Under the pieces are notes generated by a model. That model worked only from the letters and a program-made list of their open reading frames with translations, made no database searches and was not told where the DNA came from. From Caldivirga maquilingensis IC-167 (GTDB taxonomy: Archaea > Thermoproteota > Thermoprotei > Thermoproteales > Thermocladiaceae), in contig NC_009954.1 of NCBI RefSeq assembly GCF_000018305.1, forward strand, positions 540,001 through 572,000: DNA of 32,000 nucleotides, given 5' to 3'. Positions 16,379 to 17,235 of this stretch are shown here, one piece after another. The translations under genes were made by a program, and so were the position numbers. Positions within the stretch are counted from its first letter, which is position 1. Every line of letters starts with the position of its first letter.

Positions 16379-16638
16379 AAACGAACCCCCTTTAAACCCT
16401 GTATTCTTCATATAGATAGGGGAGACCCATTAAATAGCCTACTAAGCATTCTTAAAGTGCAACCAATGACGATGGAACAGATAATGAGAATAATTGAGAG
16501 GAACAAGTTAGACGCAGAGATCCTGGATTCTTTAAAGGGAATGACTAAGGAAGTGGTCTTCCATGATATTAAATACCTCGTCTACTCCGGTGATCAATAA
16601 CTTCAAGGCATGATCGCAAGCAATATATTAGACCATGA

Positions 16639-16661
16639 ATTAAGTTAATCATTAACTTAAT
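16639..16661. repeat. Perfect 23-bp AT-rich palindrome
   Basis: ATTAAGTTAAT-C-ATTAACTTAAT. The arms are exact reverse complements. Confidence 0.8.
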
Positions 16662-16692
16662 CCATAACAATAGTAATGACACTTGTGATACT

Positions 16693-16747
16693 TATCAGCG
16701 TGAGACAAGGCTCCTCACTACTCAGTTGCTGCCACGCATCATCACTC
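16693..16747 (-). ncRNA. C/D box sRNA (2'-O-methylation guide)
   Basis: The minus strand reads:
- C box GUGAUGA (16745-16739)
- 13-nt guide UGCGUGGCAGCAA
- D' box CUGA (16725-16722)
- GUA loop
- C' box GUGAGGA (16718-16712)
- 13-nt guide GCCUUGUCUCACG
- D box CUGA (16698-16695)
The architecture is symmetric, the guides are GC-rich within AT-rich spacer, and a TATA lies about 27 nt upstream. Confidence 0.8.
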
Positions 16748-16770
16748 ATCAACTTACTAACCCTTAATGC

Positions 16771-16777
16771 TTATAAG
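16771..16777 (-). promoter_or_regulatory. TATA box for C/D box sRNA
   Basis: The minus strand reads GACTTATAAGC, centred about 27 nt upstream of the nucleotide preceding the C box. Confidence 0.55.
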
Positions 16778-17159
16778 TCTTTAGTGTATTAAATATGATT
16801 ATTCATTCCTAGAGAGCCCTTCCCTTACTCCTCCAATCACTGCAAACCCATAAGGAAGCAATGAGCCCTACCCCTCTAGGGAGGTTTTAAGGAGTCGCTG
16901 TTCATTATGTTGATTATCCTTTCAACATACTAGTGTTAATCCATCATTCATTAACTCAACCCCTCATGCCTAAGCAACTAGTAATCCCATGTCCATTAGG
17001 CAGCACACTACAGGACATTAGTAATGACTGACTCATATACACTATTACTACAATCCATACCATTACTAAGGGTAATTAGTCAAATAGACTCCTCCTTGAT
17101 ATTGGCTAGTGTTCAATTCCTTAATAATTAAGTATTAATGTGGGAGGAGGATGGTTTAT

Positions 17160-17235
17160 TGGTAGCCGGGCCCGGATTCGAACCGGGGTCAGTGGGTCCA
17201 AAGCCCACCATCCTTGGCCGCTAGACGACCCGGCT
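17160..17235 (-). tRNA. tRNA-Gln (anticodon UUG), 73 nt plus genomically encoded CCA
   Basis: The minus strand folds as AGCCGGG-UC-GUCU-AGCGGCCAA-GGAU-G-GUGGG-CUUUGGA-CCCAC-UGAC-CCCGG-UUCGAAU-CCGGG-CCCGGCU-A-CCA. This is a full cloverleaf: 7-bp acceptor stem, canonical T loop, U33, and anticodon UUG. Confidence 0.93.

Follow-up and report, generated by a model that had tools for sequence, protein, structure and literature searches.

Among the guide RNAs described in archaea, sR33 of Ignicoccus hospitalis, which was detected by RNA-seq (Dennis et al., 2015; PMC4644070, supplementary file 1), is, together with sR115 of Pyrobaculum calidifontis, the nearest relative of the RNA reported here. Its D' guide, AGUGGGCAGCCC, targets the A-loop and has been assigned to 23S U2826, the counterpart of E. 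coli U2552, and its D guide was given no predicted target by the authors (PMC4644070). In the same data set, a U2552 guide and a helix-93 guide are carried by separate sRNAs in Sulfolobus acidocaldarius, where the D guide of sR7 (...GUGGGCAGCCA, followed by CUGA) targets U2552 and that of sR3, AACCUGUCUCGG, pairs with the helix-93 strand considered below. Nanoarchaeum equitans sR10 combines U2552 and a helix-93 site, C2606, in one RNA (PMC4644070). Pyrobaculum calidifontis sR115 also directs a D' guide, GUGCGGGCAGCGC, against the A-loop. The text of Lui et al. (2018) mentions neither sR115 nor the A-loop.

The canonical spacer of archaeal C/D sRNAs is 12 nt long, guide position 1 is unpaired, and at most 10 nt of the substrate are read (PMC7229835). 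Most dual guides that target rRNA address sites less than 100 nt apart and probably aid folding, and helices 90-93 are hotspots of archaeal methylation. A search of the literature for C/D sRNAs of Caldivirga found nothing relevant, and one for bulged 13-nt spacers was unproductive.

Here we describe a locus on the minus strand of a 32,000-nt stretch of Caldivirga maquilingensis DNA, which as a whole we call the window (C1:540001-572000 of a single-contig genome of 2,077,567 bp with 43% G+C). To judge from its sequence, the locus belongs to the archaeal C/D sRNA class as a genuine and conserved member that had not been described before. It has the same C-D'-C'-D layout as sR33, and the 13-nt D guide of sR33, GCCUAGUCUCACU, shares 11 of 13 nt with that of Caldivirga, including GUCUCAC beside box D. 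The two RNAs come from different orders (Ignicoccus belongs to the Desulfurococcales) and differ in detail. The sR33 D guide has A instead of U at the extra internal nucleotide, which leaves it with no 16S match, and U instead of G at the unpaired position 1 beside box D; its D' spacer is 12 nt long and pairs contiguously; and its boxes C', D and C read GUGAUGU, CCGA and AUGAGGA. Compared with the helix-93 target predicted for Caldivirga, A2598, the Sulfolobus target lies one nucleotide off (G2599, by our own reading) and the Nanoarchaeum target is shifted by eight. A2598 (alignment position 2872) is absent from the predicted sites of the seven species surveyed by Dennis et al. (PMC4644070).

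Architecture of the locus

Direct reading of the minus strand from 16745 to 16695 gives a full C-D'-C'-D layout with two 13-nt spacers (Table 1). The initial annotation had placed this architecture, with its symmetric spacers, at 16693-16747, and every box and spacer is found as described, the claimed span running 2 nt past the outer boxes on each side. The terminal boxes C (RUGAUGA) and D (CUGA) form a pair capable of a kink-turn, and the internal D' and C' boxes are joined by a short K-loop, D' being degenerate in some orthologues, as is usual. The two spacers, expected at about 12 nt in this class, measure 13 nt each here and 12 or 13 nt in the orthologues.

Table 1. Features of the Caldivirga C/D sRNA locus, in window coordinates
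Feature	Position	Strand	Remarks
TATA-like promoter element CTTATAA	16777-16771	minus	centre ~29 nt upstream of box C; preceded by purine-rich CTAAAGA
Extra C-box-like heptamer UUGAUGA (TTGATGA)	16752-16746	minus	abuts box C; not conserved in 25 orthologues
Box C GUGAUGA	16745-16739	minus	UGAUGA core invariant or nearly invariant in 24 orthologues
D' guide TGCGTGGCAGCAA (RNA: UGCGUGGCAGCAA), 13 nt	16738-16726	minus	GGCAG core invariant in orthologues; predicted target 23S A-loop, N+5 = E. coli U2552 (own LSU 2867)
Box D' CUGA	16725-16722	minus	more variable in orthologues: CGGA, CCGA, CCGU
D'-C' loop GUA (K-loop), 3 nt	16721-16719	minus	3 to ~18 nt in orthologues
Box C' GUGAGGA	16718-16712	minus	UGA-GA pattern invariant in orthologues
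D guide GCCTTGTCTCACG (RNA: GCCUUGUCUCACG), 13 nt	16711-16699	minus	predicted target 23S helix 93, N+5 = E. coli A2598 (own LSU 2913); possible secondary targets 16S A325, 23S A2577
Box D CUGA	16698-16695	minus	invariant in all orthologues, but CTGA is part of the pattern that collected them

The composite box pattern has a single match in the window and none in 100 dinucleotide-shuffled sequences, and a stricter version of it matches seven times in the genome (2.08 Mb) and never in five first-order Markov genomes; since the pattern is absent from both kinds of randomized sequence, we exclude a chance origin. The six other strict C-D'-C'-D loci, at 36704(-), 1032754(-), 1121071(+), 1263477(+), 1908387(-) and 1929274(-), all lie outside the window and are probably additional unannotated C/D sRNAs.

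The sRNA sits in an ORF-poor gap that runs from a 402-aa gene to a tRNA-Gln(UUG) gene. This region had been described as lacking ORFs, and no frame of at least 40 aa overlaps 16400-17189 on the minus strand; on the plus strand the only one of that length is a 47-aa GTG frame at 16457-16600. The TATA box, which had been put about 27 nt upstream at 16771-16777, is present there as CTTATAA, some 29 nt from box C, and a similar block lies at a like distance in most orthologues. The second UUGAUGA noted 5' of box C is likewise present and, given its lack of conservation in the orthologues, is probably incidental and non-functional.

No oligo-T terminator was seen 3' of the sRNA. A perfect 21-nt palindrome, TTAAGTTAATGATTAACTTAA, occupies 16640-16660 on the minus strand, beginning 35 nt downstream of box D, and could be a 3'-end or termination hairpin. 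Folding of the sRNA against shuffles gave no significant secondary structure (z = -0.76) and no convincing terminal stem was found, the candidate halves UGAU (16751-16748) and AUCA (16689-16686) being placed asymmetrically. Within the RNA, the 5' part of the D' guide, GCGUG (16733-16737), complements CACGC (16698-16702, minus strand), a stretch that runs from the 3' end of the D guide into box D by one base. The 5-bp pairing is present in the minimum-free-energy fold, and the two motifs co-occur in orthologues in which both spacers are 13 nt long, with G022 as the exception.

Conservation and class membership

BLAST searches of 40 relatives returned matches that cover the sRNA only (query ~45-97) and leave the flanks unmatched. 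Of 62 genomes of the order, 29 contain the TGTCTCACNCTGA motif, whereas a reversed control gave 3 hits. In 26 of the 29, drawn from several genera and two GTDB families, the box layout is complete. These 26 orthologues were gathered by a pattern of UGUCUCAC plus CTGA, so that the invariance of both, including that of UGUCUCAC in the D guide (26 of 26), is partly built into the search; ten of them were also found independently by BLAST. The GGCAG core of the D' guide is invariant in the 24 sequences from the host's own family, f1. Conservation of the boxes in relatives, to which the initial annotation had pointed as a check, holds in all 26 genomes, and their flanks are unrelated and cannot be aligned apart from a TATA-like A/T block ~30 nt upstream in most of them. 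Only the two closest genomes share synteny with the host at the upstream gene, which makes the RNA itself the conserved unit. With a sequence profile built from the alignment, more relatives were found over their full length, namely in genus g4, families f11 and f12, and Pyrobaculum.

The genome also encodes the proteins with which such an RNA would work: fibrillarin (PF01269, 337 bits), Nop5 (PF01798, 232 bits) and L7Ae (PF01248, 108 bits). At Rfam gathering thresholds the sRNA has no match, a tRNA being the only hit in the region. At relaxed thresholds many archaeal C/D models can be aligned to it over its whole length with scores of 11-26 bits, for example snoPyro_CD (26.4 bits, E = 0.004). 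The alignments to snoPyro_CD (RF00095), sR35, sR3, sR5, sR2 and sR1 run the full length of the box framework, but score 18-26 bits against gathering values of 40-60 bits (for instance 26.4 against 45, 22.1 against 60 and 20.7 against 41), and the guides differ. These families are genus-specific, and the Caldivirga sRNA is not a member of any of them.

The failure to reach gathering thresholds and the absence of significant structure are what a cluster of chance motifs or a decaying relic would also show. We regard it as very improbable that the locus is anything of this kind, because shuffled sequences contain no match to the box pattern, the RNA forms a conserved island in 26 genomes of two GTDB families with full-length hits in other families of the class, and a lack of stable structure is expected of a guide RNA that is scaffolded by proteins.

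The D guide and helix 93

The 23S string given in the initial annotation, CGTGAGACA, is E. coli 23S 2594-2602 (NC_000913 rrlH), and in the host's own 23S rRNA (C1:125848-129088, minus strand) local positions 2909-2921 are occupied by CGUGAGACAGGUC. The D guide pairs with this conserved segment, as had been proposed, through Watson-Crick pairs at positions 1-9, a G.U pair at position 10 and a G-C pair at position 11 (E. coli 2594-2604). The nucleotide selected by the N+5 rule had been named as the A of CGUGA; in the host this is local A2913, which aligns with A2598 of E. coli rrlH in helix 93. The complementarity expected between a guide and a stable RNA of its host, about 8-10 bp or more spanning position 5, is thus present. 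We know of no 2'-O-methylation at the yeast or human equivalent of A2598.

Among all sites in the rRNA operon, helix 93 gives the most favourable duplex at 37 C with each of the seven D-guide variants. Spacer length (12 or 13 nt) does not alter the register and hence leaves the N+5 nucleotide unchanged. Full rRNA sequences were available for three genomes of family f1 (the host, G003 and G012) and the helix 92-93 segment for two of genus g4 (G008, G011); conservation of the targets was assumed in the rest. Among shuffled D guides, 6.6% find an equally good geometry-respecting rRNA match, so that within this one genome the complementarity has only modest significance, and it is conservation that carries the case. 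Read in this way, the D guide is predicted to direct methylation of 23S A2598, as the initial annotation had it. The D guide of I. hospitalis sR33, with its internal A bulged, fits helix 93 in the same manner as that of Caldivirga, which gives it a likely target where none had been assigned.

A search against the host's rRNAs shows that the D guide reaches 9 Watson-Crick pairs in 23S rRNA and 10 in 16S rRNA. The latter are contiguous (guide positions 3-12, with UGAGACAAGG) and put N+5 at own SSU 334, which is E. coli A325. The RNA could then be a genuine C/D sRNA whose 13-nt D guide has 16S A325 as its physiological target, instead of or besides 23S A2598. The duplex energies do not favour helix 93 clearly (-17.8 against -17.1 kcal/mol for 16S at 37 C, and -8.5 against -9.2 at 70 C), and it is the extra U of the 13-nt variant, retained in four genera, that creates the 16S match. 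However, the 12-nt orthologues lose this match (7 bp; -9.9 to -13.6 kcal/mol) and keep helix 93, the I. hospitalis homologue has an A at the extra position that misfits 16S (pairing judged by eye), guide position 2 beside box D is unpaired with 16S, and the seven-species sRNA set holds no guide against GAGACAA (PMC4644070). On balance we consider a 16S target doubtful, though worth keeping in mind, and retain 23S A2598 as the predicted one.

The D guide has one more, weaker match in 23S rRNA, at a second GUGAGA motif (E. coli 2573-2585), where N+5 would fall on A2577, presumably the equivalent of yeast Am2946. In some relatives it is this second site that the D guide fits. The RNA of P. calidifontis and the Pyrobaculum hits (G047, G048) resemble that of Caldivirga in having the A-loop D' guide at the same place in the RNA and a D guide that ends in UCUCAC(G). 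In contrast to Caldivirga, their D guide goes on as ...CAUCUCAC or ...CCGUCUCACG and fits the other GUGAGA (E. coli 2574-2581; N+5 A2577 or G2578) instead of helix 93, which reads CGCGAGACA there; their box C is degenerate. The same combination of a retained A-loop D' guide and a D guide that fits the other 23S GUGAGA (N+5 A2577) is found in genus g4 (L086, L087) and in Pyrobaculum (L089, L090). From the guide sequences, this is a retargeting between two rRNA sites 21 nt apart, and it does not track the identity of nucleotide 2596: g4 has U2596 with a guide of the 2573 type and G089 has C2596 with one of the helix-93 type, so that no clean link emerges. Since helix 93 of Pyrobaculum and Thermoproteus reads CGCGAGACA, covariation of guide and target was looked for through TGTCTCGCNCTGA, which gave only four hits, the level of the control.

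Some of the rRNA genes compared here carry insertions. In G003, of the same genus as the host, the 23S gene (C26:56000-61188) is 4124 nt long, against 3241 nt in the host. An insertion interrupts the D-guide target immediately past CGUGAGACAG (E. coli 2603/2604), and AGGGGGAUGGCC... then follows; it has the appearance of an rRNA intron in helix 93. Compared with E. coli, the host's own rRNA operon (C1:125848-130828) has a 177-nt insertion in 16S (local 877-1053) and insertions of 191 nt (511-701) and 51 nt (759-809) in 23S; these could be introns or expansion segments.

The D' guide and the A-loop

For the D' guide the initial annotation had given a complement and no target; most likely it is U2552 in the 23S A-loop. 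Taken alone, the Caldivirga D' guide looks like an orphan, with no contiguous or geometry-respecting match of at least 9 bp in the host's rRNAs, and it is the orthologue variants that lead to the A-loop. In genus g5, 12-nt variants such as GGCGGGCAGAAU match the A-loop sequence CUGCCCGCC through 8-9 uninterrupted Watson-Crick pairs, which puts N+5 at U2552. All eleven D' variants of family f1 fit in this single register with the same N+5 nucleotide, the 12-nt ones contiguously and the 13-nt ones with one guide bulge at position 9 or 10. In the host, 6 bp are followed by a bulged U at position 9 and a further 3 bp, and N+5 is again U2552.

Additive match scoring fails to set the A-loop apart from the rest of the rRNA, and nearest-neighbour duplex energies are needed for this. 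By mean duplex energy over nine variants the A-loop is the top rRNA site, with -19.8 kcal/mol at 37 C and -10.6 kcal/mol at 70 C, where the runner-up has -15.6 and -8.6 kcal/mol. The host's guide by itself also ranks the A-loop first among rRNA sites at 37 and 70 C. A site at 23S local 1799 (near E. coli 1482) forms 8 bp, including a G.U pair, with the host's guide and is isoenergetic with the A-loop at 80 C, but misfits the other variants. Genus g4 has a compensatory change in the stem of helix 92; it affects two flanking positions and spares those with which the D' guides pair. The UGCCC of the A-loop, at first taken as an oddity beside UGUUC, is usual for crenarchaea (Pca, Tte, Sac and Iho).

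Both marks of the A-loop guide lineage are found in this RNA: a D' guide with GGGCAG or GGCAG that places N+5 at U2552, and a D guide that ends in UCUCAC beside box D and is directed against 23S GUGAGA, the latter in orthologues that were themselves collected by motif. In other families the D' guide changes. In the sister family f3 it has moved 9 nt upstream, with N+5 at G2543, and in f11 and f12 it is replaced by one against CUCUUCCCAUCC, still in domain V.

The 1-nt insertion in the Caldivirga-type D' spacer raises the question of whether this guide still directs methylation, or whether the insertion broke the A-loop duplex and left an orphan, a pairing clamp or chaperone, or a guide retargeted to another RNA. 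Only six contiguous pairs with the A-loop remain, no rRNA offers a geometry-respecting match of at least 9 bp, the site at local 1799 is isoenergetic at 80 C, and orphan guides are common in Pyrobaculum according to the literature. Yet the 5' GCG beyond the bulge is invariant in three genera and still complementary to the A-loop, which argues that the bulged duplex is under selection; the nucleotide in the bulge varies (U or A) and its flanks stay complementary; the A-loop ranks first of all rRNA sites at both 37 and 70 C; and no other A-loop guide was found in the genome.

As for a new target, a perfect 10-nt complement to D' positions 2-11 lies at C1:150338-150350 (minus strand), in a 390-nt gap with no ORF of at least 50 aa and no Rfam match. 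Genome-wide, however, complements of the D' guide comprise only chance-level 10-mers, and this one is at chance frequency (~4 expected per 10-mer). A scan of 43 tRNA loci with 15-nt flanks gave nothing convincing, and a reading of CUGCCAC as the anticodon loop of tRNA-Gly(GCC) was dropped because no stem could form. We therefore think it unlikely that the D' guide has lost its methylation role or moved to another RNA. Its most likely role, from comparison of the orthologues, is to serve U2552, the universally modified uridine of the A-loop. A search of the genome for a full-length FtsJ/RrmJ-type enzyme found only partial hits of at most 27 bits; with no such enzyme and no other A-loop guide found, modification of U2552 appears to depend on this single sRNA.

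A model for the Caldivirga sRNA

We favour, with a probability of roughly 0.7, a model in which a TATA-promoted sRNA guides modification of both 23S A2598 and U2552 and also acts as a folding clamp. The anatomy of the sequence, its conservation, its complementarity to rRNA and the occurrence of the protein genes are shown above; expression, RNP assembly and the methylation itself we infer from what is known of characterised archaeal C/D RNPs. An sRNA of ~55 nt with boxes C and D would be transcribed from the minus strand under its own TATA promoter. L7Ae would bind the C/D kink-turn and the C'/D' K-loop, and a Nop5 dimer with two fibrillarins would position each guide-target duplex. Both guides would pair with pre-23S rRNA, and fibrillarin would 2'-O-methylate the nucleotide opposite guide position 5, which would be A2598 (own 2913) for the D guide on helix 93 and U2552 (own 2867) for the D' guide on the helix-92 A-loop. 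These two nucleotides belong to the peptidyl-transferase centre and are separated by 46 nt, so that the RNA would probably also serve as a local folding clamp in ribosome assembly. A spacing of 46 nt fits the under-100-nt pattern of dual guides, and the location fits the status of helices 90-93 as methylation hotspots.

Only two features of this RNA are even mildly unusual, namely the recurrent 1-nt bulge in 13-nt spacers and the possible bispecificity of the D guide for 23S and 16S rRNA. All 12-nt spacers of the lineage pair contiguously. Bulges are predicted in D' guides (U or A in Caldivirga, g2, g3 and g4; A at position 10 in some g5) and in D guides (U here, A in Ignicoccus sR33 and A in g4). 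As a tentative generalization, which we put forward as a possibility and no more strongly, every 13-nt spacer of this lineage would leave a single guide nucleotide unpaired, at position 9 or 10, after which pairing with the same target resumes for 2-4 bp, and the inserted U would make the Caldivirga D guide bispecific for 23S A2598 and 16S A325. If this is true, over-length spacers would be fitted into the fixed geometry of the archaeal C/D RNP by an internal bulge instead of by looping-out at the 5' end.

The RNA is ordinary for its class, and the understanding of C/D sRNAs is left unchanged by it. It adds an unannotated methylation guide, with both of its predicted sites in the peptidyl-transferase centre, to a genome that had no described C/D sRNAs in the searchable literature, and the comparison supplies a likely target for the published D guide of Ignicoccus sR33. 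The lineage also offers a compact example of guide evolution, in which D' partners appear to have been swapped between families, D guides to have been retargeted between two rRNA sites that share GUGAGA, and 1-nt insertions to have been tolerated as bulges.
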